From a bacterium (GTDB lineage Bacteria; Omnitrophota; Gorgyraeia; Duberdicusellales; 4484-171), in assembly GCA_021796115.1 (NCBI GenBank), contig JAJYOP010000005.1, positions 13,039-77,038 of the forward strand: a stretch of DNA of 64,000 nucleotides, read 5' to 3'. The notes under the pieces were generated by a model. The model did no database searches. It saw only the letters and a list, made by a program, of their open reading frames with translations, and was not told the origin of the DNA. Every line of letters starts with the position of its first letter. Position 1 is the stretch's first letter. The translations under genes were made by a program, and so were the position numbers. Positions 30,838 to 62,690 of the stretch are shown piece by piece.

Positions 30838-30850
30838 TTTTTTATCAATT

Positions 30851-31939
30851 TTATGCGGGAAAGTTTTTAATAAAAAAGCTGCTGATTATTTCCTCGACCC
30901 GCCCGACCTCTTCGCTTGCCGTCCCGCCGAAAGAAAAATTATGGGCGCCGATAGCAAGGATAAGTATATCAAACCGGGATTCGCTTTGCAAGTATTGCGT
31001 TGCCAGTTTAAGCGATACATCGTGGGTAAAATACAAAGAAATTTCCTGTGCTTGCGTACTTTCGTAACATCCGAAGGCTATCTCCACTCCCAATGCTGCC
31101 GCATCAATGAAAATTACAAGATCGCTTCCGGAATTAGATATTTTACTTAAATAACTTTCTAAAGCTGTACCCGCCTCAATGACAGTTAAGCTGACACGGC
31201 CTTTTACTTTCTGTGCTATCGTTACACCAGCCCTGTCATCGGACTTCAACGAATTTCCAATTCCTACCAGAAGAGTTTTTTTGTGGCTTTTAATCTTTTC
31301 TCTAATCCCTCTTAATATTTCTTTCTCTTTTTCTTCAGGTATGAGTACGGAAATCATCTTAAGCTCTGATATTAGATTTTCAAAACTGGTAAAATGTATG
31401 GCCGATAATTTAAATTGTTTTGCTTGATGGATTAAGTCGTGGCGATCGTCAATGTAAATTATGTCTTCATATTTACAGCCACTAACCTTTTTTAATTCTT
31501 CATATATAGCTTTTTCTGGTTTTAGCGCCTTTACCTTAAATGAAAGCACTAGGTGGTCAAAAAAAGCAAAAACTTGCGGATATTTTTTCTGAAGATATTC
31601 GTAATGTAGCTCATTGATGTTTGAAATAAGGCAGGTGGGATACAAAAGGCTGATTTTTTCGACAAGTTTTATCATTTCCGTATTTGGAGAAAAAATTTCC
31701 GTCCAAACCGTAGAAAATTCTTCATACGTAACTGACGCCTTGAACCGGATTTTAAACTTATTATAAAAATCAAGGCCTGAAATAGTACCTTTCTCAAAAT
31801 CGTCGGCAAAATTATTTACGAAAAGCTCATTTATAATTTCGTCAGGCGGGACTAAAATCTTGTCTTTTATTTTATCCAGAGCAATCTCGTAATCAAAATC
31901 AAAAAGAACCCTGCCTAAGTCAAAGGCAAAACATTTCAT
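30851..31939 (-). CDS. Fusion of a HAD-superfamily hydrolase and a hydrogenase maturation endopeptidase (HycI/HyaD family)
   Basis: N-terminus FAFDLGRVLFDFD (HAD motif I) and IYIDDRHDL. C-terminus LLVGIGNSLKSDDRAGV, VIFIDAA, FTHDVSL are protease motifs. Confidence 0.7.
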   Translation of the reverse strand: MKCFAFDLGRVLFDFDYEIALDKIKDKILVPPDEIINELFVNNFADDFEKGTISGLDFYNKFKIRFKASVTYEEFSTVWTEIFSPNTEMIKLVEKISLLYPTCLISNINELHYEYLQKKYPQVFAFFDHLVLSFKVKALKPEKAIYEELKKVSGCKYEDIIYIDDRHDLIHQAKQFKLSAIHFTSFENLISELKMISVLIPEEKEKEILRGIREKIKSHKKTLLVGIGNSLKSDDRAGVTIAQKVKGRVSLTVIEAGTALESYLSKISNSGSDLVIFIDAAALGVEIAFGCYESTQAQEISLYFTHDVSLKLATQYLQSESRFDILILAIGAHNFSFGGTASEEVGRVEEIISSFFIKNFPA

Positions 31940-32121
31940 GAATTTATCCTGCTATAAAGTTCCAAATCCCGATTTCCAATGACCAAACAAATTCTAATAT
32001 CCAATGACCAAATTCTCAAGCCTAAAATTTTGGACATCGGAACGCGAAAATTAAATTTGTCTGGAATTTGTCCTTGGAGGTCGAATGGGTTTGAGCTTGG
32101 TGCTTGGAATTTTCTCATGCG
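31940..32121. repeat. Second copy-class of the CCAA/TTGG intercistronic palindrome
   Basis: ttccaatgaccaaacaaattctaatatccaatgaccaaa on +. Its reverse complement carries tttggtcattggatatt, as at 314-330. Confidence 0.6.
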
Positions 32122-32721
32122 CTAGGAACTAAACACTGTTTCTCGGCGGCAATCAGGGCACAGGATACTGAACCTTGAAGCGCGTTTAAGCAGCTTATCT
32201 GCGGCATAGCATTTTTTGCCGAAAAGCATACTTTGAGCAAAGGTAAGTAGTGTTGTATTTGGCGGATATAAGGCCCCGAGTTTTTTAATTGTCCAATCCA
32301 GGTGGTCTTTGCAGGCAAAAGCTCTATTGCAGCATTCGCAGAAAATCATCTCTTTCTCTATTGTCTGGATAAGACTTTTTCTGTTTTCTGTTGTTGCAAT
32401 GTCGAATTCGTTGGAGAGCATTATTCCTTCAACACTTACGCAGTTTAATTGGCATTGCCCACAGGCAATGCATACATCCCAATTAACCGTGAACACTCTT
32501 TTTGCGCGGCCATTCTCCGCCACGTCCTTAAAGTTTAAAGCTTTTGTCGGGCAAACATTAACACAAGCGGTGCAGCCGATACACTTATCTTCATAATAAT
32601 AAGGCCGGCCGCGGAACGCGCGAAAAGGAATGCAAGGCTTTTTAGGAAACTTTGTTGTATAAGCCTTTGAAAATAAAGAAGTTATGGCGCCTTTTATTTC
32701 GCGTAATTTTGGATATTTCAT
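32122..32721 (-). CDS. NuoI/MbhN-like 2x[4Fe-4S] subunit with a Cys-rich C-terminal extension
   Basis: CIGCTACVNVCP and CIACGQCQLNC motifs. Extra CECCNRAFAC..CPDC motifs. Confidence 0.75.
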   Translation of the reverse strand: MKYPKLREIKGAITSLFSKAYTTKFPKKPCIPFRAFRGRPYYYEDKCIGCTACVNVCPTKALNFKDVAENGRAKRVFTVNWDVCIACGQCQLNCVSVEGIMLSNEFDIATTENRKSLIQTIEKEMIFCECCNRAFACKDHLDWTIKKLGALYPPNTTLLTFAQSMLFGKKCYAADKLLKRASRFSILCPDCRRETVFSS

Positions 32722-32744
32722 TTTATTACCCGGTTAAATCATTA

Positions 32745-33059
32745 TTACTTATATTCGTTGCCGACACTCCCTTCGCACAACTTCTCTCCTGATTTATGCG
32801 CTGCGCGCGCCAAGGCGTGAGAAGAAGTCGGCGAACTAAATAGCAAAAATATGAGTGCAAGTAAACATTTTATTCCCGCAGCATTAAAACCTAAAACTAA
32901 AAATGTGCCAAATAAAATATTACAAGTGCCAAAAGTAACGCATTTTGTCGAAGCCTGTAATCGATTATACACATCAGGGAATCTGAAAAGGCCGAGGCAC
33001 CCAATCAAGTCAAATGCAAGGCCTAGAGTAATAAAAATTACCCCGATTATATTATTCAT
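32745..33059 (-). CDS. Mrp/Mnh antiporter subunit G-like (MbhC-like)
   Basis: GLFRFPDVYNRLQASTK motif; three TM helices. Confidence 0.75.
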   Translation of the reverse strand: MNNIIGVIFITLGLAFDLIGCLGLFRFPDVYNRLQASTKCVTFGTCNILFGTFLVLGFNAAGIKCLLALIFLLFSSPTSSHALARAAHKSGEKLCEGSVGNEYK

Positions 33060-33420
33060 CGAAATCCTTTCCTTCTAAAAACTTTGCAAAGGCAAGAGTT
33101 GAGATAAAACTTTGTAATGCCCAGGCAATGCCTATATCCATATACCAACTCCTTTTTGTGCTTATGCTTAACAGCGCACATATGCCCACAATTAAAATTC
33201 CAAGCATATCCATACCGACAATTCTGTCGGCAGCATTCGGTCCGCGTAGTACACGAAAGAGACAAAAAAATGCACTTAAAAGAATTATACTCATTCCCCT
33301 TTTTAGGATATTTAAAAACGGCAGATCAGGATACATTAAAATATTAAGTGGGTGGAACAATAGCGCAGAAAGAATTACTGCCAGCAATAAAGCACTGATA
33401 AAATAACGCACTGTTTTCAC
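33052..33420 (-). CDS. Mrp/Mnh subunit F-like (MbhB-like)
   Basis: FRVLRGPNAADRIVGMD motif. GTG at 33420, coupled to the upstream sORF stop, is preferred over the ATG at 33444 that lies inside the repeat. Confidence 0.65.
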   Translation of the reverse strand: MKTVRYFISALLLAVILSALLFHPLNILMYPDLPFLNILKRGMSIILLSAFFCLFRVLRGPNAADRIVGMDMLGILIVGICALLSISTKRSWYMDIGIAWALQSFISTLAFAKFLEGKDFDE

Positions 33421-33527
33421 CAAGCCCTTCCTTTTTTTAAACATTTTCCGAGTGCATCTTTGTTTTGTTCCAACCTTTCCATATCTTTATAGATAAACAT
33501 CGTTTGTTTTGGAAGGGCTGGGTTCAT
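33417..33527 (-). repeat. Intercistronic cassette copy 1: 36-codon sORF plus SD-sequestering helices
   Basis: The ATG lies 1 nt after the mrpE-like stop, and its TGA overlaps the GTG of the next gene. Peptide MNPALPKQTMFIYKDMERLEQNKDALGKCLKKGRAW. 95 of 111 nt are identical to 35506-35616. Confidence 0.6.
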
Positions 33528-33528
33528 C

Positions 33529-34017
33529 TTATTCAAATATTTTCTTTATAAGATTCTCAAATTTATTGACCGCGGCCGTTATGATTTCTTTTTTATCGCC
33601 AACTTCAATGCAATGGAGATATAGACAACTCTCTTCTTTATCTAAATCAACGGTTATGGCGCCCCGAGTTAAGGTAATTATATTTGCAAGATAAGTCAAG
33701 CCTATATCTGTTTTTAGCGAGGTTTTTACCTTAATAATTCCTGGTTTGAGGGAAAGATTGGGGCTGATAATATAGCGCGCGATATCCAGGTTTGCTTTAA
33801 AGCATTCCCAGATAAAGACGGGCATAAGGTATAAAAACCATAAATAGCGCTGCACTTTGAAAAATTGGGCCGGACGATTGGTAAAAAGGTCGCCCAAGAG
33901 TAACGTCACGAAAGCGGCAACGATAATTCCGATGAATATATGTTGTGCGTCTACTGGAAAGCGCAACAAACACCAAATAATAAAGCCAACGATAAATAAT
34001 ATTAACTTACTTCTCAT
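33529..34017 (-). CDS. Mrp/Mnh subunit E-like (MbhA-like)
   Basis: 162 aa, N-terminal TM helices, position within the Mrp gene order. Confidence 0.65.
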   Translation of the reverse strand: MRSKLILFIVGFIIWCLLRFPVDAQHIFIGIIVAAFVTLLLGDLFTNRPAQFFKVQRYLWFLYLMPVFIWECFKANLDIARYIISPNLSLKPGIIKVKTSLKTDIGLTYLANIITLTRGAITVDLDKEESCLYLHCIEVGDKKEIITAAVNKFENLIKKIFE

Positions 34018-35509
34018 TTGTCACCTTTAAAATCATATCTTTATAATCTTTTCCCTGCGCTAATACGTTTTTGGCCGGTTCGGTAAAATAATTGCCGAAT
34101 TTCGGTAAAATAATTACACCGCTAAAGATGCAAACGATTGATAAAATTACCATTGAGGTTTGCATTAGGAAGGGGACTTCCCGCGTACTTTCCAATTCTT
34201 TAGGTGCCGGGCCAAAAAATGCGGATTTTTGGAATTTCATAAAATAGGAAATAGTTAAAACACTACCTATAATTGCCCAGATGCCATAGCCGATGTAACC
34301 GCTTTTTATGCAAGCAAAAATAATCAGCAATTTGCTGAAAAAACCATTAAACGGCGGTATTCCAGAGATACCCATAGAAGCGATTAAAGATGTATTCGCG
34401 GTTATCGGCATTTTTTCGCGTAGCCCTCCAAGCTTTTCTAAATCCCGCGTGCCGGTGGCATATTCCACTGCTCCGGAGTTTAAGAAAAGCAGAGATTTGA
34501 ATATGGAGTGATTAAATAAATGAAACAGCGCTCCAAGTATAGCCATAGGAGTACCGATACCTAAGCCTAAAATTATATAACCAACCTGGCTTATGGATGA
34601 ATAAGCCAGCATTCGTTTTAAATCTGACTGACCGAGGGCGAGTAAGCCGCCTACAATTATTGAAACTGCGCCTAAAAACATTAATAAGCTTAAAAAAGAC
34701 GTAGTGACGCCTAAAACGTTATAAAAAATCCGGCAGAGGCTGTATATTCCCAGGGATTTAATCAGAATTCCGGAAAGCATGGCCGAAATCGGTGCCGGTG
34801 CTGCCGGATGAGCATCGGCAAGCCAGGCATGAAACGGAACAATTGCTGATTTTATGCCAAAGCCCAAGATGAATAAAATACTTGAGAAAATAACTGTCTT
34901 GTTGATTCCTTGGTTTGAAATAACCTCTGAAAGATGAGCCATATTTAGCGTAGAGGCGTTTGAATAAAGAAAAACAATTCCCAGAAGAATAAAAAGAGAA
35001 CCCATTGCGCTCATGGCCATATATTTGAAAGACGCTTCCATCTCTTCCGCTCTGCTTCCGAAGGCAACAAGTGCGTAACTTGCGATTGAAGCAAGCTCAA
35101 AAAAGACAAAAAGGTTAAAAATGTCTCCGCTGATAACTACGCCGTTCATTCCGCCAACCATAAGGAGAAACAAAGTGTAAAACTTACTTTTTGCCGTAAA
35201 TTTTTCCATGTAGTTTACCGAGTATAAGTTAATCATAAAAGAGATAAAATTTACGATTAAAAGCATAAAAGCCGTTAAGCTGTCGACAACCAGAGGTATG
35301 CCAATAGGCGGAGCCCATCCTCCAACTTTATAAATAAGAGGAAGTATTTGTGTATTGGTATTGTAGAGCGTAATCAGAGAAATAATAAAAAGAAGCAAAG
35401 TTATTGCGTTAGAAAAAATATCGCAAAAAGCCCCTTTTCTCTTTCCGGAAAGCGAAAGCAAAAAAGCAGCTCCAAGCGGTAAGATTATGAATAAAGGAAT
35501 TAATTTCAC
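34007..35509 (-). CDS. MrpD/NuoM/NuoN-like antiporter subunit (second antiporter-like subunit)
   Basis: 500 aa, about 14 TM helices, proton-conducting-transporter motifs (WLADAHPAAPAPISAMLSG, MLAYSSISQVGYI). Confidence 0.85.
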   Translation of the reverse strand: MKLIPLFIILPLGAAFLLSLSGKRKGAFCDIFSNAITLLLFIISLITLYNTNTQILPLIYKVGGWAPPIGIPLVVDSLTAFMLLIVNFISFMINLYSVNYMEKFTAKSKFYTLFLLMVGGMNGVVISGDIFNLFVFFELASIASYALVAFGSRAEEMEASFKYMAMSAMGSLFILLGIVFLYSNASTLNMAHLSEVISNQGINKTVIFSSILFILGFGIKSAIVPFHAWLADAHPAAPAPISAMLSGILIKSLGIYSLCRIFYNVLGVTTSFLSLLMFLGAVSIIVGGLLALGQSDLKRMLAYSSISQVGYIILGLGIGTPMAILGALFHLFNHSIFKSLLFLNSGAVEYATGTRDLEKLGGLREKMPITANTSLIASMGISGIPPFNGFFSKLLIIFACIKSGYIGYGIWAIIGSVLTISYFMKFQKSAFFGPAPKELESTREVPFLMQTSMVILSIVCIFSGVIILPKFGNYFTEPAKNVLAQGKDYKDMILKVTNEK

Positions 35510-35616
35510 CCAGCCCTTCCTTTTCTAAAACATTTTTTTAGTAAATCTTTATCTTGTCCCAACCTTCCCATATCTTTATCGGTAAACATAGTTTGTTTTG
35601 GAAGGGATGGGTTCAT
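35506..35616 (-). repeat. Intercistronic cassette copy 2: 36-codon sORF plus SD-sequestering helices
   Basis: The ATG lies 1 nt after the mrpC-like stop, and its TGA overlaps the GTG of mrpD. Peptide MNPSLPKQTMFTDKDMGRLGQDKDLLKKCFRKGRAG. Confidence 0.6.
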
Positions 35617-35617
35617 A

Positions 35618-35995
35618 TCAGCCTTTTAACCTATTTATTTTTGTTATATCGAATGTGCCGTATTTTTCATAAATTCTTATGGCGATTCCGACAAGCAACG
35701 CCGTAGTAGCCAAGCCGATTACTATAGAAGTTAATGCCAAGGCCTGCGGCAGCGGGTCAACCATGTTTACTATTTCCTGCCTAGGAGAGTATATCGGGGA
35801 ACGGCCGTTCATTTTGTATGCAAAGAGTGCAAGAAATAGATTGACCGCATATTCGCAGATGATAATACCGATAATTATTTTTATGATATTTCGTTTTCGA
35901 ACAATTGCGTAAAGCCCTACGCAAAATAATATCAAGCAGAGAAAATAAGTAAGCATTTTATTCCTCGTCTTTTTCCAAATCTTTTTTCGGAGCAA
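35618..35995 (-). CDS. MrpC/NuoK-like subunit (MbhG-like)
   Basis: 125 aa, three TM helices, PLPQALALT motif. Confidence 0.8.
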   Translation of the reverse strand: MLRKKIWKKTRNKMLTYFLCLILFCVGLYAIVRKRNIIKIIIGIIICEYAVNLFLALFAYKMNGRSPIYSPRQEIVNMVDPLPQALALTSIVIGLATTALLVGIAIRIYEKYGTFDITKINRLKG

Positions 35996-36437
35996 ATTTC
36001 AATAAGACCAGCACCAGAAATATTCCAAATAAACCAAGCGATACCTCCAAGAGCGCAAGCGCGACATTTGAAATTGGTATGGTTCCGGCAGAGAGAAGTT
36101 TAAACGGCATTCCTTTGGGAAGCCAATTGTAAAAGAAATATCCGCCGCTAAAACCTAAAAGTGCAATAACTAAAAACATAATTACGCCTAAACTTTCAAG
36201 GATGGAAATCATTCTTTCAGGGATTCTTTTTAATATTTCTTCTTTTCCGAAAGCAAGCATGAAAAGAATGTAAGAAAGCGCAATAATAAATCCGCCGGCA
36301 AATCCTCCGCCCGGAGAAACATGCCCATGCAGGACAATATAGATTCCATAGAGAAGTATTAAACCCACAAAAATACGGGTAACAGTCTTAACGATAAGGC
36401 TCATTCCTTTATTATCTGAATTGTTCTTAGCCTTCAT
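35958..36437 (-). CDS. MrpB/MnhB-domain subunit (MbhF-like)
   Basis: HVSPGGGFAGG motif typical of the MnhB domain. Confidence 0.7.
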   Translation of the reverse strand: MKAKNNSDNKGMSLIVKTVTRIFVGLILLYGIYIVLHGHVSPGGGFAGGFIIALSYILFMLAFGKEEILKRIPERMISILESLGVIMFLVIALLGFSGGYFFYNWLPKGMPFKLLSAGTIPISNVALALLEVSLGLFGIFLVLVLLKFAPKKDLEKDEE

Positions 36438-36966
36438 CTTTTTCCCCTAATTTTTTACGTGCTTTTTTGCGCATTACACTCATTACGCCTATGGCGGCAG
36501 CAAATAAGACAGTAGCTTCACCTAGGGTGTCATAGGCACGGAAATTCAGGTTTATCGCCGAGACCAGGTTGGTCGCATGAGTTTTTTGGCTCGCTTCGTT
36601 AAGAAAGAATTCAGAAACCCGCATCACAGGGCTACCGAAAACCGGCAGATTTTTTAAAGCCTGATAGCCCGCATAGAGAAAAACAGCTAAAAATAGGCAA
36701 GTTGCCACAGTATTGAAAAGCCAGCGCCCCGAAGTTGAAAAAGGCAAATCGTCTCTCGCGGTCGCCCTGATTAAAATAGCTAAACACAGGATTTCAACGA
36801 CCAATTGGGTAATTGCTAAATCAGGCGCTTTTAGCATTAAAAAAGTTATGCAAAGCCCAAGGCCGCTTGCGCCAACCGCAACAACCGCCGAAAGCAAATC
36901 TTTTACATTAATGGCAACGAGCGCACCAAGGATAATGAAGATTAATAGAAAATTTATTTCAAGCAT
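36427..36966 (-). CDS. MbhD/MbhE-like fusion (MrpA C-terminal-like plus MnhB N-terminal-like)
   Basis: APDLAITQLVVE motif, then NFRAYDTLGEATVLF. Confidence 0.6.
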   Translation of the reverse strand: MLEINFLLIFIILGALVAINVKDLLSAVVAVGASGLGLCITFLMLKAPDLAITQLVVEILCLAILIRATARDDLPFSTSGRWLFNTVATCLFLAVFLYAGYQALKNLPVFGSPVMRVSEFFLNEASQKTHATNLVSAINLNFRAYDTLGEATVLFAAAIGVMSVMRKKARKKLGEKDEG

Positions 36967-37061
36967 TTTAAGTTTTCACACCGTAAAGCCACTAATACCG
37001 AAAAAGCGCAAAAGATTTTTTTGCGACTTTATGCCTTCTTTACAATTGGACGGTATTAATT

Positions 37062-38693
37062 TCATTTAAAAAGATAAAAAAATAATCCGATTGCTCCAAT
37101 CAGACACCAGACTAGATAAGTAGACAATATCCCATTGTGCAAATAACGCAAAAATCTAATGATAATGAACGCAAATTTTTTAAGTAGTTCATAAATATCA
37201 AATATTTTTTCTTCTGCGAATTTATAAATATTCTTTAAAAGTGGCATCTCTTTGATGGCATTATAAAAATCCCCTATTTTTACCTCTTCTGTCGGTAACA
37301 ACTCTTCTCCTCCGATAAAAGAAGCGCTTGTGCGAACTTTTTTCTTCATTATCGAAAAAATGATTAATCCTAACACTAACCCCGCGATTATCAGGTATGT
37401 GGCAAGTTGCGGTTGCCATAGGCCGATTTCGACAAAACTCCCTGCGCTTTTTTGTATGAATTTTAAAATGGTAGAATAAGCGAAAATACCGAAAATTAAA
37501 CAAAGCAAAGAAAGAATAACCGGTGTAAATAGAAGTAATTTTCCGGCTTCTTTAACCTCCTTTTCGGGATTACCTAAAAATATTCCCGCATTCAGCTTTA
37601 AGAATGAGGCAAGCGTAAGCCCGGAGCCAATAAGCGCAAAAACCAGCGATAAAGCGATGGTGAATTTTAAAGTGAGAGAACCGGCGGAATTCATAAAATC
37701 AATTAAACCCTGGTAGACCATCCATTTGGAGATGAATCCATTTAGCGGCGGGATGCCGGAAATTGATAAAGACGCAATTAGCGTTGTAAGAAATGTTATC
37801 GGCATAAATTTGCCTAATCCGCCCAGCTTTTCGAGCTCAACCGTGCCGGAGCTTTTTTCTACATTACCGATGTTCAAAAACAGGCAGGATTTGTATATTG
37901 CATTGTTAACCATATGGAATAACCCAGCCGCAAGCCCAAGCGGTGAACCACAGCTAATGCCAAGTACCATATAGCCAACCTGGGAAACCGCATGATAACC
38001 TAAAAGCTTTTTAGCATTATGCTGGATGAGCGCCATCATTACCGCACAAATGACCGTAAGACCGCCAGCAACAAGCAGGATAATTTTTGCAATATCGTTA
38101 AGGACAAAAAAATCTTTAACGATTCTGGCCAAAAGGTAAATTCCTAAGAGTTTGTCTAAAGATGCCGGCAAGTAGGCAACCACCGGAATACTTGCTTTTT
38201 CCGCTACTTCCGGAACCCAGATATGAAACGGCATACATCCGGCTTTAGCAAAACAGCCGATAGCAATAAAAATAAAGGAAAGTAAAGAAAGAGGCGTGTT
38301 GATAAGTATAATATTTCCGGCTACAAGGGTACTTGCGGTTATGTAACTATAAATCAGAAATCCAAATAAAAGAAAGCCATCGCTCCCGCCGACAATAATG
38401 AAACTTTTTTTTGCGGCTCTGGCGATATCCTTATCAGTATAGGAGTAAAGATTGACTAACTTAAAAAGCGACATCCCGAGAAAGCCCCAGAAAATAACGA
38501 TATAGATTAAGTTAGCACTAAAAACTACCCCCAAAGAGACAATTGATGTCAGGAAAAACCAAAAGTAATACTCCAGCTTTTTGCTCTTTATAAAACCTAA
38601 AGAGTAAATGAAAATTACGGCAGTAAAGAAAATAATAAACGTGCCGACCAATTTCGAAAGCGAATCAAAAAGTAAAATATTTTTAAAGTCCAT
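37062..38693 (-). CDS. MbhH/NuoL/MrpA-like antiporter subunit
   Basis: 543 aa polytopic protein with HIWVPEVAEKASIPVVAYL and LLGYHAVSQVGYM motifs. Confidence 0.8.
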   Translation of the reverse strand: MDFKNILLFDSLSKLVGTFIIFFTAVIFIYSLGFIKSKKLEYYFWFFLTSIVSLGVVFSANLIYIVIFWGFLGMSLFKLVNLYSYTDKDIARAAKKSFIIVGGSDGFLLFGFLIYSYITASTLVAGNIILINTPLSLLSFIFIAIGCFAKAGCMPFHIWVPEVAEKASIPVVAYLPASLDKLLGIYLLARIVKDFFVLNDIAKIILLVAGGLTVICAVMMALIQHNAKKLLGYHAVSQVGYMVLGISCGSPLGLAAGLFHMVNNAIYKSCLFLNIGNVEKSSGTVELEKLGGLGKFMPITFLTTLIASLSISGIPPLNGFISKWMVYQGLIDFMNSAGSLTLKFTIALSLVFALIGSGLTLASFLKLNAGIFLGNPEKEVKEAGKLLLFTPVILSLLCLIFGIFAYSTILKFIQKSAGSFVEIGLWQPQLATYLIIAGLVLGLIIFSIMKKKVRTSASFIGGEELLPTEEVKIGDFYNAIKEMPLLKNIYKFAEEKIFDIYELLKKFAFIIIRFLRYLHNGILSTYLVWCLIGAIGLFFYLFK

Positions 38694-38739
38694 TTAACCT
38701 CGTTTTGCCGGTAGAGTACAGATAACAGAAATAAAAAAA

Positions 38740-39933
38740 TTATTTTTTATCATTGCCGTAAATTTTTTTTATTTTTTCCGTTTTTTCGATAGATAATCTA
38801 ATAAGATCCTCGCCTTTTAAGATTTTTTCTCCGGTTAGAGTGAATGCCGCGCTTCTTTCTGTGCAGCAATAACAAGGATCAACCGCGGCAAGAGTCAGCG
38901 CAGCATCTGATATTGTATAACCCGGAACAGTTACGAGATTTGTTGCAACATTTACGAATGAAGGCGCTCTGATTTTGTGGCGTACCGGCCGGTTTGTGCC
39001 ATCGCTTCGGATATAATGAAAGCACTCGCCTCTTGGTGCCTCTACCCGCCCTATGCCTTCACCTTGAGGGATATCGCGCACTTCGGTTTCAATTTCGCCT
39101 TTTGGGATTCTGTCCAAACACTGTTCAATTATCGAGCAGGATTCAATCATTTCCAGAACTCTTACTAGTAGCTTTGCGTGGATATCGCCTTCGTTTCGGG
39201 TTATGACTGACCAGCTTAGTGTATCATAGCGCGCGTATCGGTCATCTCTGCGCACGTCAATATCTATTCCGCTTGCTCTTGCCGTAGGGCCCACTGCGCC
39301 AAAGGATATACCGTCTTCTTTTTTTAATATCCCCACACCTCTGGTTCTTGTTTGAATAACCGGGTCATCCTGTATGGCTTTCTGGAACATTTTTAAAGTC
39401 GGATATAAATTCTTTATGGTTTTTCGAATTACAGGGTAAGCCTCTTCCTTAATATCACGCCTTACCCCGCCAATTTTTAGCATCGCGTAGTTTTGCCTAT
39501 TTCCGGAAATTAGTTCGAATAAATCCAAGACAGGTTCTCTGGCTTTCCAGGCCCACATCCAAATTGTGTTGTAACCGATAAAGTGTCCGGCTAAACCAAG
39601 CCATAAAAGATGCGAATGCAGCCTCTGTAATTCATCGATAATCATCCTAATGTAATTGGCTCTTTCCGGAACCTCTATCCCCAATAAATCTTCTCCGGCC
39701 AGGCAATAGGCAAAAGGATGAGAATTTGAGCATATGCCGCAGATTCTTTCAACGAGGAACGTTATCTGGTCCCAGTGCTTTTCTTCAGCGAGCTTTTCTA
39801 TCCCCCGGTGGTTATAACCAATATCAATTTCAAGCTCAACAACGTGTTCGCCTTCGACGATGAGTTTGAAAAATTCAGGTTCTTCCTGAAGCGGATGATA
39901 AGGGCCAATTGGTACGATTTTTCTTTCAGCCAT
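38740..39933 (-). CDS. Group 4 [NiFe]-hydrogenase large subunit (NuoD/MbhL-like)
   Basis: N-terminal RICGICSNSH and C-terminal DPCYCCTER Ni-Fe ligand motifs are both intact. A tail of about 37 aa follows the C-terminal motif. Confidence 0.9.
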   Translation of the reverse strand: MAERKIVPIGPYHPLQEEPEFFKLIVEGEHVVELEIDIGYNHRGIEKLAEEKHWDQITFLVERICGICSNSHPFAYCLAGEDLLGIEVPERANYIRMIIDELQRLHSHLLWLGLAGHFIGYNTIWMWAWKAREPVLDLFELISGNRQNYAMLKIGGVRRDIKEEAYPVIRKTIKNLYPTLKMFQKAIQDDPVIQTRTRGVGILKKEDGISFGAVGPTARASGIDIDVRRDDRYARYDTLSWSVITRNEGDIHAKLLVRVLEMIESCSIIEQCLDRIPKGEIETEVRDIPQGEGIGRVEAPRGECFHYIRSDGTNRPVRHKIRAPSFVNVATNLVTVPGYTISDAALTLAAVDPCYCCTERSAAFTLTGEKILKGEDLIRLSIEKTEKIKKIYGNDKK

Positions 39934-40357
39934 TTTTTCTGCTCTTCCTTAATGGAAAATCATCTTTCGGCCAATCGTCGTCAAGGAGCAAATGCTTTAA
40001 CTGGTGATGGCCAACAAAATTTATTCCCAACATTTCATGTATTTCACGTTCGACCCAGTCACTGGCTCTAAAAATTTCTACCAGCGAATCAATTTCTGGC
40101 TTATCTTTTTCCAGGAATACACGCACGCTAAAGATTTCTCCGGTTGCATCAAGCCCGAAATGGTACAGGAGCTCGAAATTAATTTCGTTATCAGCGCCGG
40201 TTATGGTCGATAAACGCATCTTTTTATCCCGGTGGAGAAATTTCGCTACAGTTTTTATATCTTTTTTGTCAATGGTAAAATAAATTCTTTTAGGATTTTT
40301 AACTATCCAGTCTCTGATTTGGTTTTCTAAATTATTTTTTATCTCGTCTTTTATCAT
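39926..40357 (-). CDS. NuoC/MbhK-like subunit
   Basis: 30-kDa-subunit-like core (ASDWVEREIHEMLGINFVGH). Confidence 0.8.
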   Translation of the reverse strand: MIKDEIKNNLENQIRDWIVKNPKRIYFTIDKKDIKTVAKFLHRDKKMRLSTITGADNEINFELLYHFGLDATGEIFSVRVFLEKDKPEIDSLVEIFRASDWVEREIHEMLGINFVGHHQLKHLLLDDDWPKDDFPLRKSRKNG

Positions 40358-40365
40358 TTTAGTAA

Positions 40366-40785
40366 TTATTTATTTACCTTATTTATAAGTTTAGCCAGCC
40401 CTGCGATAATTGCTTCCGGTCGCGGTGGGCATCCTGGAATATATAAATCTACAGGCATGATTTCATCTAATGGCGACTGCATGGAATAACTCCCCTTAAA
40501 CATGTGCATTGAGCATGGGCATATCCCCACCGCAACAATGAAGCACGGTTTTGGCGCCTGCCCGCAAACTTTCTTAAAGCGTTTGAGGGCTTTTTTGTTC
40601 ATTGCGCCGGTAACTAAAATTACATCCGCATGCCTGATACTTCCAACAAGCTGGATTCCCAATCTTTCAACGTCGAATCTTGGGGTAAGGCAATCAAGGA
40701 TTTCGATATCGCAGTTGTTGCAGGAGCCAACACTGGCATGAAACACCCATAATGATTTAGTTAAAATTTTTTCTTTTATACCCAT
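40366..40785 (-). CDS. NuoB/MbhJ-like hydrogenase small subunit
   Basis: GSCNNCDIE, GICPCS and PGCPPRPEAI cluster-N2-type motifs. Confidence 0.85.
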   Translation of the reverse strand: MGIKEKILTKSLWVFHASVGSCNNCDIEILDCLTPRFDVERLGIQLVGSIRHADVILVTGAMNKKALKRFKKVCGQAPKPCFIVAVGICPCSMHMFKGSYSMQSPLDEIMPVDLYIPGCPPRPEAIIAGLAKLINKVNK

Positions 40786-41711
40786 TATAAACCTTTTATG
40801 GCTAAAATTATACCTAATATTCCCAGCGGAAAAAGGAAAAACCAGAAAAATCCCAGAATTTCTTTTATACGCAGGCGCGGATTTATGTTTTTAATTACCG
40901 AAATTAATAAAAGAATTAGCACATATTCGATAACGAATGCCGAATATTTATGCAACGGATTATTTATTGCGATTTGCCCGAACAACGCGATTACGAATAA
41001 GGGTAGCGAAAAATAAAGCAAAGTTTTTGCGATGCGGTAAAACCCGAGAAGCGGGCCGGAATATTCAATGGCTGTTCCAGACATTATTTCTTGTTCGGCT
41101 TCTGCAGCATCAAATGGCACTATGCCGAGTTTAGCCTGGATATAGAAAAGAGCCAGGATAAAACCAATTGTGCCGGAAGCGCTTTTAAGATACATTCCGC
41201 GGTTTATCTGGTTATTTAGGATATCAGCAAGCATCAAATTACCGTTGGATTTGATTATGATAATTACCAGGCTGATTATAAATATAAATTCATAAGAAAG
41301 CATGAGCTTTGTTTCCCGTGAAGCGCCAACTAAAGCCAGCGGGTTGCGGGAACTCGATGCACCAAGAATTATGAAAAGCGAAGGGATAATTAAAAGATAA
41401 AGCATAACCAGGATATCGCCAACAAAACTTTTATCTAAAAAGTAATTTTCTGTCAACATAAGATTAAACATAAGCACCGCAGAAAATGTCAGCAGCGGCG
41501 AAAGAATAAATAAAATCTTCGATGCTCCACCAGGGATAATCGTTTCTTTCAGAAATAGCTTCAGGATATCAAGAAAAGTTTGATACCACGGCGGGCCAAC
41601 TCGGTATTGAAAGCGGGCGGTAAATTTGCGCTCCAGCCACCAGCCCATACCGCCTATAACCAGCGAAAAAATAAACCCCGGGAAAATTAAATAATTGAAC
41701 AATGCTTTCAT
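40785..41711 (-). CDS. NuoH/MbhM-like membrane subunit
   Basis: 308 aa polytopic protein with RFQYRVGPP, PFDAAEAEQE and EYSG motifs. Confidence 0.8.
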   Translation of the reverse strand: MKALFNYLIFPGFIFSLVIGGMGWWLERKFTARFQYRVGPPWYQTFLDILKLFLKETIIPGGASKILFILSPLLTFSAVLMFNLMLTENYFLDKSFVGDILVMLYLLIIPSLFIILGASSSRNPLALVGASRETKLMLSYEFIFIISLVIIIIKSNGNLMLADILNNQINRGMYLKSASGTIGFILALFYIQAKLGIVPFDAAEAEQEIMSGTAIEYSGPLLGFYRIAKTLLYFSLPLFVIALFGQIAINNPLHKYSAFVIEYVLILLLISVIKNINPRLRIKEILGFFWFFLFPLGILGIILAIKGL

Positions 41712-42202
41712 CTTTTTTTATATAAGACCCTATCGTCTAAAAACCATTTTTTCGGATGTTTTACGGCAAGGGAATCGGATACAATATAAATATTTTGTAC
41801 AATATCATCCGCAGCTATGTCTCTGATTTCGATTACATTATGCGGACAAGTTTCCATGCATAGCTTTTTATCTCTCCCGATACAGAAATCGCATTTCGAA
41901 TCAAGGAAGTCAAGGAAGTCATCAAATATAACGCCGAATGGGCAGGCAATAGCGCAGGTTTTACATGAAGTGCATAAAAATTTTGCCCGCTTGATGATTT
42001 TATTCTCATCTTTTGCCAGTGCGTTATGATAACAGGAATTTATGCAAGGCGCCTCTTCGCATCTGTGGCAAACAACTGCGAACGTTGCTAATTCCCTAAG
42101 CGAAGTTATGCCTTTGTTTTGCGGATGGTAAATGTAACCGCACTTAACTACGCACTCCAGGCATTTATCGCACTTTTCCAGGTCTAACAATAGTCTTTTC
42201 AT
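41708..42202 (-). CDS. HycB/HydN-like multi-[4Fe-4S] ferredoxin
   Basis: CDKCLECVVKC, CHRCEEAPC, CTSCKTCAIACP and CDFC..C..CP motifs. Confidence 0.75.
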   Translation of the reverse strand: MKRLLLDLEKCDKCLECVVKCGYIYHPQNKGITSLRELATFAVVCHRCEEAPCINSCYHNALAKDENKIIKRAKFLCTSCKTCAIACPFGVIFDDFLDFLDSKCDFCIGRDKKLCMETCPHNVIEIRDIAADDIVQNIYIVSDSLAVKHPKKWFLDDRVLYKKR

Positions 42203-42270
42203 GTTTATCTAATCACGAATGATTATTCCGTCCTTCATCCTTCGTTATCTCTGTTCATCTGCACTGCATA

Positions 42271-43083
42271 TCAATCCCAAATATCCCACATATCCTTAAT
42301 ATCCTGCAATTTAAAAACCGGACCGTCTTTGCAGATATAATATTTACCCAGCCGGCAATGTCCGCATTTTCCCAGGCCGCAGCTCATATTTTTTTCCATG
42401 GAAAGATAAACTTTATCTGGGGCAAAGCCTAATTCAAGTAATTTCAGGCTGACAAATTTCATCATAATCGGCGGGCCGCAGACGATACCGGTAGCGGATT
42501 TTGTATCGATAGGTAATTTATCCAGCGTCGTAGTAACTATGCCGACATTTCCTTTCCAGGTTGGCTCTGCCCTGTCAACCGTTAAACGGAACTCCACCTT
42601 CGTTTGGTCCTTAAATTCATCAAGTTGATACTTATAAATAATATCCTGCGGGCTTCTTGCGCCATAGCAGATAACTATTTTTTTAAAATCATTTATACGG
42701 GCGTAAAGCGCGTAAATTAAAGAGCGTAAAGGCGCAAGCCCGACGCCACCGCCAACAATGAGCAGCTCCTTGCCTTTAAAATCATCAAGCGGATAACCGT
42801 TTCCGTATGGACCGCGTACCCCAAGGACTTCCCCTTCTTTGGCATTGTGGAATAATTCCGTAACTCTTCCGACACGCATAATCGTTACTTCGAATTCGTC
42901 TTTTTTGTTTGGGCTGGAAGAAGGTGTAAAAGGAGCTTCGCCTGCTCCCGGATAGGTCAATTCTACGAATTGGCCGGTCTTAAACGAGAAAGATACATGG
43001 GGTTTAAAAACAAATGTCTTAATCGTGGGCGTTTCTTCGATTATTTTTATTAGGGTGACTTTATTGGGCAAATACAGGCTCAT
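42271..43083 (-). CDS. FAD/NAD(P)-binding oxidoreductase with a C-terminal [2Fe-2S] (sulfhydrogenase gamma / AsrB / PyrK-like)
   Basis: FNR-like fold (GQFVEL, LLIVGGGVGLAPL) and CGLGKCGHCRLG motif. Confidence 0.8.
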   Translation of the reverse strand: MSLYLPNKVTLIKIIEETPTIKTFVFKPHVSFSFKTGQFVELTYPGAGEAPFTPSSSPNKKDEFEVTIMRVGRVTELFHNAKEGEVLGVRGPYGNGYPLDDFKGKELLIVGGGVGLAPLRSLIYALYARINDFKKIVICYGARSPQDIIYKYQLDEFKDQTKVEFRLTVDRAEPTWKGNVGIVTTTLDKLPIDTKSATGIVCGPPIMMKFVSLKLLELGFAPDKVYLSMEKNMSCGLGKCGHCRLGKYYICKDGPVFKLQDIKDMWDIWD

Positions 43084-43086
43084 GTT

Positions 43087-44115
43087 TTAGTGTTTCTGGT
43101 TTTTGTCAAGTGTTGCAAATATTTTTCTTAAGTCAATCTTTGCCGGGCAATCTTCGACACAGCGGCCGCATCCGGTGCAGGCGTAAGTGTTTATCCGGCT
43201 AGGAAAAAACTCGAATTTTTTTATATATCTATTTCGCAGTCTATATTCGCGAAACCGTAAGGCACTCGCTCCGCCTGCCACACGGGTAAAATTCTTATAT
43301 TGGCAGCCATCCCAAATTCTGCCTTTAAAATAACCATTTTCATCTTTTGTATCGAAGAGAAGAAAACAATGACAAGTCGGGCAATTCATGATGCAAGCTC
43401 CGCATTCTACACAGCGCAACGCTTCACTCGGCCACACCCCATCACCGTACCCATTTTTCATTAAGTCATAGAGTAATTCTTTTTGAGGAAAATTTAACTG
43501 GCTTACCTGAAGGGTTAATTTTTTTACAATGTCACTTCTTTTTCTCTCATGTTCTTCGCGCATTTGCCAGGTAATATCTTTGAAAAGATCTTTATTTTCC
43601 GCTACGATTTTTTCTCCCCTATCCGAACCAATTCTTACGGCATAACCATTTTCAGCTGGTGAGATATTTAAATCAAAAAGTTCTTCCGGGTAAGGCTTGA
43701 TTCCGAATGCCAGACAGAAACATGTTTCTTTAATGGCTGTGCAGTCAGATGAGATAATGAGGTTTTGCTGTCTCATTTTTTTATAATTTTCATCAACATC
43801 TCCTTCAAGGAATACGTAATCCTGGACTTTTAAGGCATTGCTCAAATCGCACGCTTTTGCACCTACGATGCAAAACGGCTTAGAATTTTCAGTTTTTGTT
43901 TTAAAATAGTCGCCTATAGGCTCAACAGCCGAAGTCAAAAATTGACGAATGGAAGTAACAGCGCGGTAATTATTAAATGCAAAATTCCCTGTATAACTTT
44001 GCCAGAAATAATTTTTTTTCGTTTCAGCAGGAAAGAATACCTGGTAAGCTTTCGTGAGGTTATTAAGCAATTTAAGAAAATTATTGCTCTCTATAAAATC
44101 AAGGGTGTGGTTCAT
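43087..44115 (-). CDS. Fe-S subunit resembling sulfhydrogenase beta / AsrA
   Basis: CVECGACIMNCPTCHCF and CTGCGRCVEDCP motifs; 342 aa; directly precedes the AsrB-like gene. Confidence 0.75.
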   Translation of the reverse strand: MNHTLDFIESNNFLKLLNNLTKAYQVFFPAETKKNYFWQSYTGNFAFNNYRAVTSIRQFLTSAVEPIGDYFKTKTENSKPFCIVGAKACDLSNALKVQDYVFLEGDVDENYKKMRQQNLIISSDCTAIKETCFCLAFGIKPYPEELFDLNISPAENGYAVRIGSDRGEKIVAENKDLFKDITWQMREEHERKRSDIVKKLTLQVSQLNFPQKELLYDLMKNGYGDGVWPSEALRCVECGACIMNCPTCHCFLLFDTKDENGYFKGRIWDGCQYKNFTRVAGGASALRFREYRLRNRYIKKFEFFPSRINTYACTGCGRCVEDCPAKIDLRKIFATLDKNQKH

Positions 44116-44122
44116 GTTTATA

Positions 44123-44138
44123 TGTGAATTTTTTCACA
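44123..44138. promoter_or_regulatory. Perfect TGTGA-N6-TCACA palindrome (CRP/FNR-family half-sites) 8 nt upstream of the first hydrogenase-operon ATG
   Basis: + strand reads tgtga-attttt-tcaca at 44123-44138. Confidence 0.4.
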
Positions 44139-44168
44139 ATTAAAGTTAAAATAAAAATAAACTTTTAC

Positions 44169-44196
44169 AGTATAACAGTGAATGGCTTTTTGTCAA
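44169..44196 (-). promoter_or_regulatory. Sigma70-type promoter of the hydrogenase operon
   Basis: On the minus strand, TTGACA (44196-44191), a 16-nt spacer, then TATACT (44174-44169). Confidence 0.45.
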
Positions 44197-44205
44197 GACT
44201 AGCGC

Positions 44206-45399
44206 TTATTGGACCGGAGTTTTTTCAAGGACATCTCTCTGAAGCTTCAGAGCATTTTCGATATCTTCGGGCGTGACATAGCCTAAGTCTTTAAGGATTT
44301 CGCCAAGAATGACCCCTCTCTTCCAGTGCGTCGTTAATGCGTTGTCAAGCTGCTCATCTGATATTTTTTTGTGTTCAAGCAAGATTTGGCCAAGCGGCCG
44401 ATAGTAATTTATGAACAAATTTTCTTTTTTGTATACCTGCAAATCCGAAGTGTCGCCCGAGGTTGTTCTTCTGTCAGCCATGAATTTGCTTCCCGGAACA
44501 CTTTTTAAATAGCGTTTTATTTCCGCAATACGCTCGTTTATTTCAACGGTATTTTTAAACTCATGGGGCTTGTTTTTGTTAACAAGAGCAACGGTTACGC
44601 TCATTAAAGGCATTCTTTGTATTTGTTTTAACCGGTTACGGGCAATGACAAAATTCTGCTCACGGTCTTTTTTTGTATAATGAAATGGAATCAGATTGTC
44701 GAATAAAAAAATAAAATGCCGGCAAATTTCCTTGTATTTTTCCGGTGTTGTTATAAATACGAAATCATCCCCTCCAATATGACCGATAAAGTCATCATTA
44801 CTGCTGAATTTTTTAATTACAGTATAAAGAATATAAGCGGTCTGCATGAGAACCCTATCCCCTTTTATATAACCATACACATCATTAAAGTATTTAAAAT
44901 TATCGATATCAATATGCGCAAAGGCAAAACAAGAATCCTTCTCGATTTTTTCCTTGAGAATATCTTCAATAAGGCGACCGCCCGGCAATCCGGTAAGCGG
45001 GCTTGAGTAGAAACTATATTGTGAGCGCTTTATGGCAATTTCTATGCGTGTTCTTAAATCAAGAGGATCCGGAGGCTTTATAAGATAATCGTCTACGCCT
45101 TGTTTTAAAGTAAGAAGCTGCTCGCGCAGATGACCTTTATCGATGAGGGTGATAATCGGGATAAGAGCGGTAATAAAATCTTCTTTCAGCTTCCGGCATA
45201 TCTCAAGATGAGGTTTCGTTGCGGAATGAACATCGATAATTATGGCATCAGGAGAAATTTTTTTAATTACCACGATATCATCTATACGTGGTTCGTGTAT
45301 GAAGACTTCATAGCCCCATCCGTCAAAACAAAAATGTAAAATGTCACGCAGGTGCTTATCGGTGGTTATTATCAGGAGGCGCCTTACTCGCTTTTGCAT
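44206..45399 (-). CDS. Response-regulator receiver + degenerate GGDEF (GGDDF) + C-terminal MshEN/GspE_N-like domain
   Basis: REC N-terminus (LLIITTD..DAIIIDV). GGDEF fold with HIGGDDFVFI. C-terminus PLGQILLEHKKISDEQLDNALTTH and ILGEILKDLGYVTPEDIENALKLQ. Confidence 0.75.
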   Translation of the reverse strand: MQKRVRRLLIITTDKHLRDILHFCFDGWGYEVFIHEPRIDDIVVIKKISPDAIIIDVHSATKPHLEICRKLKEDFITALIPIITLIDKGHLREQLLTLKQGVDDYLIKPPDPLDLRTRIEIAIKRSQYSFYSSPLTGLPGGRLIEDILKEKIEKDSCFAFAHIDIDNFKYFNDVYGYIKGDRVLMQTAYILYTVIKKFSSNDDFIGHIGGDDFVFITTPEKYKEICRHFIFLFDNLIPFHYTKKDREQNFVIARNRLKQIQRMPLMSVTVALVNKNKPHEFKNTVEINERIAEIKRYLKSVPGSKFMADRRTTSGDTSDLQVYKKENLFINYYRPLGQILLEHKKISDEQLDNALTTHWKRGVILGEILKDLGYVTPEDIENALKLQRDVLEKTPVQ

Positions 45400-45435
45400 A
45401 AAAATATTATATCACTTCTTTTTGAAAAGTTGCAT

Positions 45436-61640: not shown

Positions 61641-61647
61641 TTCTTTT

Positions 61648-62517: not shown

Positions 62518-62690
62518 CTTCCCGTTATCCTCTTCAACTTCTTTAAATCTTCTTCTGTCCAATATCTATATCCGGACATAGGGTCTCTTTTGGCCTTTGG
62601 GATTTTCTTAGCCTCTTCCCAGAGATATAAGGTTTTTCTGGATATATCTAAGATTTTAATTACTTCGGAAATACGATAGCGTTTTTGCAT
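62514..62690 (-). CDS. MerR/excisionase-type HTH protein (58 aa, absent from the ORF track)
   Basis: Hand translation gives MQKRYRISEVIKILDISRKTLYLWEEAKKIPKAKRDPMSGYRYWTEEDLKKLKRITGR. Confidence 0.6.
   Translation of the reverse strand: MQKRYRISEVIKILDISRKTLYLWEEAKKIPKAKRDPMSGYRYWTEEDLKKLKRITGR

Follow-up and report, generated by a model that had tools for sequence, protein, structure and literature searches.

The closest described counterpart of the system treated here is Hun, a 16-subunit Ni-Fe hydrogenase-Na+/H+ antiporter supercomplex that Glass et al. (2021; bioRxiv 10.1101/536078 / Environ Microbiol) defined from genomes. There, HunAB are AsrAB-like, HunC is ferredoxin-like and HunH-O are Mrp-like, while HunG is assigned to group 4g by HydDB, yet is distant from other 4g large subunits, as a separate clade marked by its CGIC-CYCC motifs. 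The carriers named there are metagenome-assembled genomes (MAGs) of Atribacteria, Firmicutes, Omnitrophica, Elusimicrobia and Bacteroidetes as well as cultured Kosmotoga; some of the operons contain a molybdopterin protein between hunB and hunC, and ferredoxin was proposed as the donor to HunABC (10.1101/536078). Here we describe such a locus in a stretch of 64,000 nucleotides (the window) from an Omnitrophota bacterium, corresponding to positions 13,039 to 77,038 of the forward strand of contig JAJYOP010000005.1 (assembly GCA_021796115.1). Positions are counted from the first letter of the window. Judged by gene content and homology, the locus at 32122-44115 is the hun operon, encoding the named Hun [NiFe]-hydrogenase-Mrp antiporter supercomplex, and an NAD(P)H link of this complex is plausible from the flavoprotein that it encodes.

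Related systems have been reported under other names. Matheus Carnevali et al. (2019) described an 'enigmatic' Mrp-Mbh-type group 4 hydrogenase in Saganbacteria RX5A (PMC6349859). Bird et al. (2019) found a hydrogenase of Atribacteria to be co-transcribed with an adjacent oxidoreductase, suggested 'ferredoxin or NADH' as its donor and also mentioned 'and/or reduce sulfur compounds' (PMC6469976). Williams et al. listed Omnitrophota hydrogenases of group 4g with an Mrp link and took ferredoxin to be their donor (PMC8542988).

An initial annotation, made from the window alone, had presented the arrangement as unusual. This does not hold, because the Hun operon is known and had already been reported in this phylum (as Omnitrophica; 10.1101/536078), with a variant in Saganbacteria (PMC6349859), and the locus is a typical example of a named system, not a new architecture. 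Neither is the idea of NADH as a possible donor new, as it had been named for Atribacteria (PMC6469976). By the annotation's own terms, placement in an already characterised subgroup with this subunit set would refute its reading; the outcome comes near to that, the subgroup being described and named, but known from genomes rather than characterised biochemically.

Identity and gene content of the operon

Identities of the open reading frames (ORFs) were assigned with Pfam and NCBIfam profile scans, and solved homologues were found by matching to the Protein Data Bank (PDB). The locus consists of 16 ORFs, all on the minus strand (44115→32122), with gaps that are short or overlapping (Table 1). 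Their number and order are those published for Hun, HunAB are AsrAB-like, and the large subunit has the CGIC (L1) and CYCC (L2) motifs given in the defining study. Close homology to a Hun operon of that study was seen through a Clostridia MAG (1244-F3-H4-B3, from Hydrate Ridge site 1244; locus L073), which has the same asrA-asrB-hycB-nuoHBCD order and 66% HunG identity; its isolate name matches the site 1244 bins of the Hun paper, to which it therefore presumably belongs.

The subunit list of the initial annotation was correct, Pfam and NCBIfam agreeing with each assignment, and lacked only hunI, the gene for the MbhD + MbhE fusion. Ten of the subunits are membrane proteins by Pfam. The proximal [4Fe-4S] cluster presumably resides in HunE, and HunP has a C-terminal CxxC...CxxC extension that is conserved among its homologues. 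The asrA-like gene is the first of the operon, since what lies upstream of it is a response-regulator/GGDEF gene and lipopolysaccharide (LPS) genes. Between the mrpA-like and mbhDE-like genes, which are 95 nt apart, a hairpin resembling a terminator, with a T-rich tail, was noted at 37007-37025 (minus strand); as sites of this kind are no more numerous overall than in shuffled sequence, the hairpin may mean nothing.

Conservation of hunABC with the catalytic core

Relatives of HunG in the database run into the thousands; the top 120 matches were 67-100% identical, and all of these that carry organism names were labelled Omnitrophota or Omnitrophica. When species-representative genomes were scanned with the large subunit, at least 585 relatives were obtained, and the 80 best, mostly from Omnitrophota and 63-90% identical, were kept. 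The proteins of the window were mapped onto these 80 loci by tblastn and the ORFs were then recovered. All 80 were of the Hun type.

Synteny was counted on the 58 loci whose sequence extended 2.2 kb or more beyond the 5' end of the hycB-like gene. The asrA- and asrB-like genes were immediately 5' of this gene in 57 of them, at 63-90% large-subunit identity. The gaps in the hunABC region of the relatives were mostly -4, -29 or +3 nt, with stop and start codons often overlapping, suggesting translational coupling. The asrB-hycB gap was often 1-10 nt or overlapping and reached 241 nt at most, and thus no molybdopterin insert is present in any of these loci. Genes for a donor enzyme (formate dehydrogenase, FDH; carbon monoxide dehydrogenase, CODH; or a molybdopterin protein) were looked for in 55-58 relatives, by a survey of the gene families conserved within ~5 kb upstream of hunA in 55 loci and by the synteny count. 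None was conserved either there or between hunB and hunC, and the upstream families included no redox enzyme at all.

The membrane arm was variable. A third antiporter-like gene lies right 3' of the large subunit gene in nine loci (L023, L025, L030, L033, L037, L041, L048, L059 and L063), and four others (L052, L056, L058 and L062) have a single antiporter-like gene, without MrpB/C/D/E/F/G-type genes, together with hunABC and the core. Since HunABC is kept in all the loci with an altered membrane arm, it belongs with the catalytic core, and HunAB would be integral subunits of Hun.

These data also bear on the possibility that the asrAB-like genes are a separate unit that neighbours the hydrogenase operon merely by chance. 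The asrB-hycB gap of the window is 68 nt long and a weak promoter-like match was found within the asrB-like gene, as such a separation would have it. No terminator-like site is present in that gap, however, the gene order persists at 57 of 58 loci over the whole range of large-subunit identity with gaps that are often minimal, and co-transcription has been reported in Atribacteria (PMC6469976). We therefore consider a chance neighbourhood extremely improbable and agree with the initial annotation that the asrAB-like genes are in the same unit as the hydrogenase.

Second, more distant asrA/asrB-like genes (27-39% identity) were observed in three relatives (L032, 668-2400; L070, ~2099; L073, ~2657) at a distance of a few kb on the upstream side of hunA, and nuoD/nuoB-like genes were found there in their place in another (L056, 3-1200). 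These extra genes hint that another hydrogenase or additional Fe-S flavoproteins linked to NAD(P) are encoded close by.

The HunAB module and the electron donor

The first two proteins of the operon are homologous to the sulfhydrogenase βγ and AsrAB pairs, as had been read from their sequences initially. Their best solved matches were the β and γ subunits of Pyrococcus furiosus sulfhydrogenase I (SHI), namely 9nez_B for HunA (1.3e-33) and 9nez_C for HunB (1.6e-57), and strong solved matches were limited to this one kind; no paper on the 9NEZ structure was found in the literature. Against NCBIfam, HunA matched ShyB (2.1e-45), HydB (5e-38) and AsrA (2.9e-30), every score being under the equivalog cut-off, and HunB matched AsrB (5.5e-69, also under the equivalog cut-off) and HydG (1.1e-57).

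The HunB motifs for FAD (GEAPFTPSSSP), NAD(P) (GGGVGLAPLRS) and the [2Fe-2S] cluster (CGLGKCGHC..C), as well as CGPPxMMKF, were at least 95% conserved among 63 homologues whose overall identity is just 53-82%. To our knowledge, all the characterised flavoproteins of the AsrB/HydG(ShyC)/PyrK/NfnA kind exchange hydride with NAD(P)(H), and for this reason NAD(P)H appears to be a more parsimonious partner of HunB than ferredoxin, in line with the initial annotation and contrary to the Hun paper. The residues following the second β-strand of the NAD domain (GARSPQD in HunB, TARYGKD in SHI γ and GARTKD in NfnA) were compared with respect to the choice between NADH and NADPH, and were uninformative.

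HunC and HunP resemble subunits of formate hydrogenlyase (FHL). The PDB matches of HunC included HycB3/B4 of the hydrogen-dependent CO2 reductase (HDCR) and HycB of FHL, and its Cys motifs were conserved across 72 homologues, while HunP matched FHL HycF (7z0s_F, 2.3e-18) better than MbhN (3.9e-11). Neither Pfam nor NCBIfam revealed a NuoE, NuoF or NuoG homologue in the operon. As noted initially, FDH and CODH genes were absent: none of the window's ORFs of 250 aa or more that were examined outside the operon (ten by Pfam, the others judged from their translations) encodes either enzyme.

In a different reading, ferredoxin would be the only donor: reduced by pyruvate:ferredoxin oxidoreductase (PFOR), it would dock at HunC, HunA or HunP, HunABC would be an Fe-S antenna, NAD(P)H would not be a substrate, and the exergonic formation of H2 from reduced ferredoxin would power the export of Na+ or H+ through the Mrp arm, as in the membrane-bound hydrogenase (MBH) of P. 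furiosus. MBH, however, accepts ferredoxin without extra subunits, and FAD and NAD(P) motifs conserved to the extent seen in HunB are unexpected for a mere Fe-S spacer. The use of NAD(P)(H) throughout the characterised part of the family and the synteny of hunAB at all but one of the 58 loci speak against it as well. On its side are the proximity of HunG to MbhL of MBH (2.2e-91), the established thermodynamics by which a full Mrp arm is energetically sensible only with a low-potential donor, and the assumption of ferredoxin in what has been published on Hun and on the group 4g enzymes from Omnitrophota (10.1101/536078; PMC8542988). We regard an exclusive use of ferredoxin as rather improbable. 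Circumstantial support for NAD(P)H comes from the Omnitrophota of Ace Lake, in which each MAG had one hydrogenase, of group 3b, 3d, A3 or 4g (PMC8542988), the alternatives to 4g being all of NAD(P)-linked types.

The large subunit and its maturation

The L1 motif of HunG (RICGICSNSH) is encoded at 39718-39747 and the L2 motif (DPCYCCTER) at 38854-38880; the latter was found in 79 of the 80 related loci. Beyond it there is a C-terminal extension of 37 residues (31-48 in the relatives). The closest solved structure was MbhL of MBH (6cfw_L, 2.2e-91), followed by HycE of FHL (7z0s_E, 7e-76), and the match to ShyA of NCBIfam was merely 4e-14.

Directly 3' of the hunP-like gene, in the window and in 19 related loci, is a gene whose product combines a HAD phosphatase domain (residues 4-185, 3.8e-24) with a HycI-type hydrogenase maturation endopeptidase (residues 223-347). 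A promoter-like site at 32019-31991 precedes this gene, which may thus have its own promoter. No Hyp maturation genes were noticed within the 64-kb window, although no search was aimed at them. The presence of both Cys pairs, the C-terminal extension and the gene for the HycI-type protease downstream bear out the initial assignment of HunG to the true [NiFe] hydrogenases rather than to the Mbx/Mbs type. The functional unit is slightly larger than 32122-44115, comprising also 44123-44196 upstream and 30851-31939 downstream.

The large subunit also bears on a sulfur-linked role, in which a site in HunA would reduce polysulfide or another sulfur compound, coupled to the oxidation of H2 or ferredoxin. 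HunA and HunB are homologous to AsrAB and to the βγ subunits of sulfhydrogenase, an enzyme with reported sulfur-reductase activity, and the reduction of sulfur compounds was mentioned by Bird et al. (PMC6469976). HunG nevertheless retains all the Ni-Fe ligands, unlike the membrane-bound sulfane reductase (MBS), and no AsrC or other siroheme subunit was found in the operon or its flanks. The established physiological role of SHI is the exchange between H2 and NADPH, not sulfur reduction. Taken together, these observations make a sulfur-linked function very improbable.

Promoter and Rex operator

The best promoter-like match in the region 30500-45600 was found in the 90 nt upstream of hunA, with 11 of 12 consensus positions and the TG of an extended -10. 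Downstream of it is a predicted operator (ROP) of the redox repressor Rex, for which the published consensus is TTGTGAAW4TTCACAA or TTGTGAANNNNTTCACAA (PMC2883068; PMC6391272). Nowhere else in the 64-kb window was TGTGAAnnnnTTCACA matched; the operator matches it without a mismatch, where 0.16 matches would be expected at up to one mismatch; the Rex regulon operator TTGTGAAnnnnTTCACAA is thus present in the hunA promoter region with 12 of 12 core positions matched. No rex gene was found in the 64-kb window. The operon therefore appears to be transcribed from a σ70-type promoter gated by a Rex operator.

The same arrangement was looked for in 1.26 Mb of related loci, using boxes with a 4-nt spacer, and 57 loci were scored. 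Ten of the 11 exact boxes and all 13 of the one-mismatch boxes were within 70 nt 5' of hunA, and the eleventh exact box was upstream of a rex gene directly preceding hunA. A Rex box was upstream of hunA in 23 of the 57 loci (those with Rex sites at hunA include L002, L003, L005, L008, L009, L029, L065, L073, L076 and L078), a rex gene, confirmed by NCBIfam (3e-60), adjoins hunA in 10 loci, and one or the other link to Rex was seen in 28 of the 57.

With such an operator at the promoter, the operon should be derepressed as the NADH/NAD+ ratio rises, and expression tied to this ratio would favour a reductant-venting, H2-evolving role of Hun. The probable Rex control of hun is newly documented in this analysis, having been absent from the passages of the Hun paper that were consulted, and the operator provides a small new handle for experiments.

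Immediately 5' of the hun promoter, at 44206-45399 (minus strand), is the gene for the protein with response-regulator receiver and GGDEF domains. The same neighbour (77-79% identity) was seen in two close relatives (L003 and L005).

Table 1. Positions in the window of the hun genes, of the sites preceding hunA and of the downstream maturation gene.
Feature	Position	Strand	Product or description	Evidence
hunA	43087-44115	-	342 aa, AsrA / sulfhydrogenase-β-like Fe-S protein	Pfam Fer4_22 1.4e-25
hunB	42271-43083	-	270 aa, AsrB / sulfhydrogenase-γ-like flavoprotein; FAD, NAD(P), [2Fe-2S] sites	Pfam FAD_binding_6, NAD_binding_1, DHODB_Fe-S_bind
hunC	41708-42202	-	164 aa, HycB/HydN/CooF-like ferredoxin, four Cys motifs	Pfam Fer4_11; NCBIfam HydN 1.2e-12
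hunD	40785-41711	-	NuoH/MbhM-like membrane subunit	Pfam NADHdh 3.4e-57
hunE	40366-40785	-	NuoB/MbhJ-like small subunit	Pfam Oxidored_q6 2.5e-25; NCBIfam NuoB subfamily 124.9 bits (cut-off 116)
hunF	39926-40357	-	NuoC/MbhK-like subunit	Pfam Complex1_30kDa 2.3e-28
hunG	38740-39933	-	397 aa, [NiFe] large subunit, NuoD-like	Pfam Complex1_49kDa 6.5e-70, NiFeSe_Hases 3.1e-16
hunH	37062-38693	-	543 aa, MrpA/NuoL-like antiporter-like subunit	Pfam Proton_antipo_M 1.1e-50; NCBIfam MrpA-type ~1e-60
hunI	36427-36966	-	MbhD + MbhE fusion, counterpart of the MrpA C-terminal portion	Pfam MbhD 1.7e-15, MbhE 2.2e-11
hunJ	35958-36437	-	MnhB/MrpB-like	Pfam MnhB 2.8e-25
hunK	35618-35995	-	MnhC/NuoK-like	Pfam Oxidored_q2 7.5e-27
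hunL	34007-35509	-	500 aa, MrpD/NuoM/N-like antiporter-like	Pfam Proton_antipo_M 8.8e-70, Proton_antipo_N; NCBIfam MrpD-type 2.4e-117
hunM	33529-34017	-	MnhE/MrpE-like	Pfam MNHE 1.5e-38
hunN	33052-33444	-	MrpF-like	Pfam MrpF_PhaF 2.3e-18
hunO	32745-33059	-	MrpG-like	Pfam PhaG_MnhG_YufB 7.8e-25
hunP	32122-32721	-	NuoI/HycF-like, 2x[4Fe-4S]	NCBIfam formate hydrogenlyase Fe-S subunit 1.9e-25
σ70-like promoter	44169-44196	-	TTGACA, 16 nt, TG-n-TATACT (TGtTATACT)	consensus match only
Predicted Rex operator (ROP)	44123-44138	.	8 nt 5' of the hunA ATG, downstream of the promoter	with flanks TTGTGAAAAAATTCACAT on the coding strand
HAD-phosphatase + HycI-type hydrogenase maturation endopeptidase fusion	30851-31939	-		NCBIfam TIGR00072 54.1 bits (cut-off 47.45)

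Proposed mechanism and energetics

The reduction of protons to H2 by NAD(P)H is near equilibrium at the H2 levels of sediments and cannot drive the export of ions. Forward ion pumping driven by NAD(P)H, the complex I-like mode that the wording of the initial annotation suggests, is thermodynamically unlikely because the reaction is endergonic (~ +18 kJ/mol under standard conditions, an established value quoted in PMC7064455) or near equilibrium. For the same reason the Mrp arm would not harvest energy from this reaction.

The docking of the subunits, the donor, the direction of the reaction and the ion coupling that we infer for Hun would be as follows. Electrons would pass from NAD(P)H to the FAD and [2Fe-2S] cluster of HunB, then to the [4Fe-4S] clusters of HunA and the four clusters of HunC, and onward through the two clusters of HunP and the proximal cluster of the NuoB-like subunit to the Ni-Fe site, where 2H+ would be reduced to H2. 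The Mrp arm would couple this reaction reversibly to the ion gradient, so that an influx of ions would help to expel reductant as H2, and at high H2 the oxidation of H2 could export ions through the same machine. This reading, in which ions flowing in through the Mrp arm would drive the formation of H2 from NAD(P)H, with reversal at high H2, is the one that we rank first, and we hold it to be somewhat more probable than its negation. The most novel proposal sees in Hun a reversible, ion-translocating NAD(P)H:H+ oxidoreductase and a proton-reducing counterpart of complex I, which would have arisen when an FNR/PyrK-type module was independently recruited to an MBH/Mrp scaffold; in our judgement it has an even chance of being right.

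Several observations weigh against this use of NAD(P)H. The sequence of HunB cannot separate NADH from NADPH, the docking proposed for HunA, HunC and HunP follows the example of FHL, and a membrane arm of the Mrp type, elaborate and energy-conserving, would be hard to justify near equilibrium unless ferredoxin co-feeds the complex or the arm runs in reverse. Glass et al. proposed ferredoxin, and the literature found on Hun, Kosmotoga and group 4g enzymes consists of genomic descriptions, with no biochemistry. A Rex box with up to two mismatches was missing near hunA in 34 of the 57 relatives. Furthermore, Rex also represses PFOR and ferredoxin-dependent membrane [NiFe] hydrogenases (PMC6391272), as the ferredoxin-only reading would have it, and hence Rex control does not identify the direct donor. 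Lastly, one relative, an Omnitrophota 'chromosome' (CP070807.1, 1-8300; L004), is the sole one with the hycB-like and core genes and without hunAB. It has the housekeeping genes thrC, argS and recJ upstream and a run of N exactly at the junction (~7330-7460), and because of this run it was not taken as a natural counter-example; hunAB may have been truly lost there, or the assembly may be at fault.

In a further reading, ferredoxin would be the main donor and the Fe-S chain would split, one branch reducing protons at the Ni-Fe site and the other NAD(P)+ at HunB, or else ferredoxin and NAD(P)H would be combined for the formation of H2. Hun would then be an MBH-like hydrogenase joined to an ion-translocating ferredoxin:NAD(P)+ oxidoreductase, or a membrane analogue of the confurcating hydrogenases. 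The long cytoplasmic wire of about nine clusters with two possible entry ends (HunB, and the surface of HunC/HunP), the conserved NAD(P) site, and the exergonic partial reaction implied by the Mrp arm all agree with such a valve, and 'ferredoxin or NADH' is what Bird et al. suggested (PMC6469976). Nonetheless, we found no second flavin or known bifurcating cofactor, the FAD of HunB being presumably the non-bifurcating FAD of the NfnA/PyrK type, and these organisms are reported to use Rnf for the exchange between ferredoxin and NAD+ (PMC8542988), which would make the function redundant. We consider a branched chain unlikely.

Returning to the NAD(P)H-linked reading, its consequences would be several. 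If NAD(P)H is the partner, Hun would account for the way in which these fermenters reoxidise NADH with the formation of H2 while doing without an [FeFe] hydrogenase of the electron-confurcating kind, and the ancestor of complex I would have acquired a pyridine-nucleotide module in a second, independent way. The donors of group 4 hydrogenases, so far ferredoxin, formate and CO, would also be joined by a fourth class. Under the control of Rex, it would let fermenters such as Omnitrophota, Atribacteria and Kosmotoga spend ion-motive force on venting NADH as H2, or gain ion-motive force from H2. The system is common in Omnitrophota; at least 585 large-subunit relatives were obtained from species-representative genomes, and the literature adds Atribacteria, dominant in subseafloor sediments.

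Other features of the window

A large serine recombinase (Resolvase + Recombinase + Zn_ribbon_recom) is encoded at 59985-61679 (minus strand), and in 60001-64000 the GC skew drops to -0.25 and the GC content to 33%. An integrated mobile element may have its border in the recombinase region. At 7548-9140 (plus strand) there is an ORF of 530 aa for which no Pfam match was found even at E = 0.05.

Comparison with known systems

Hun as described by Glass et al. has the same number and order of genes, AsrAB-like HunAB, a ferredoxin-like HunC, the CGIC/CYCC motifs and an Mrp-like Na-module, and no structural difference was found; the window lacks the molybdopterin protein that some Hun operons have between hunB and hunC. 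The donor published there is ferredoxin, whereas NAD(P)H is considered more likely here. Saganbacteria RX5A likewise has asrA-, asrB- and cooF-like genes beside a group 4 hydrogenase and Mrp-like genes; according to its authors, the enzyme is most closely related to those of Omnitrophica and Zixibacteria (PMC6349859). Its cluster adds a molybdopterin oxidoreductase of the FdhH/NapA type, of which none was found in the window or among the conserved upstream families of the relatives.

The MBH of P. furiosus (group 4d, 6CFW) shares with Hun the NuoB/C/D/H/I-like and Mrp-derived subunits as well as proton reduction, and has the closest solved large subunit. In contrast, it has 14 subunits, one of them antiporter-like, takes ferredoxin directly at MbhN and is without HycB-like or flavoprotein subunits; Hun has two antiporter-like and three extra cytoplasmic subunits, and its HunP is nearer to HycF than to MbhN. 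The E. coli FHL-1 (group 4a, 7Z0S) and the formate and CO enzymes of Thermococcus (group 4b) have the same wire of HycB-like and HycF-like subunits to the core, and the latter also have an Mrp module, as in Hun. Where these enzymes have a donor enzyme (FdhF, FDH or CODH), Hun has the HunAB flavoprotein/Fe-S pair; of the hallmarks of groups 4a, 4b and 4c it thus has the HycB/CooF-type and HycF-type subunits but not the FDH or CODH.

SHI (group 3b, 9NEZ/9NF0) has βγ subunits homologous to HunA and HunB, with the same FAD site, the same Cys patterns for [2Fe-2S] and [4Fe-4S] clusters and the same NAD(P) motif. There the βγ diaphorase sits on a cytoplasmic group 3 αδ hydrogenase, without a membrane arm or ion coupling, whereas the large subunit of Hun is NuoD/MbhL-like and neither the αδ pair nor a cytoplasmic location applies to it. 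Hun is not an AsrABC sulfite reductase, as AsrC is absent and its AsrA and AsrB scores are under the equivalog cut-offs.

Complex I shares with Hun a pyridine-nucleotide-type flavoprotein module, an Fe-S chain, and NuoB/C/D/H/I-like and antiporter-like subunits. However, the flavoprotein of Hun is of the FNR/PyrK type with FAD, in place of NuoEFG with FMN, its acceptor site would be a Ni-Fe site for protons instead of a quinone pocket, and its driving force would be near zero or reversed. Membership in complex I is also contradicted by the lack of NuoE, NuoF and NuoG and by the Ni-Fe ligands kept in the large subunit. The matches to the MBH, FHL and SHI structures and to the Mrp families together indicate that Hun is a hybrid, which seems to be composed of an MBH-like core, a full Mrp arm and an FHL-like wire, with an SHI-like diaphorase in the place of FdhF.

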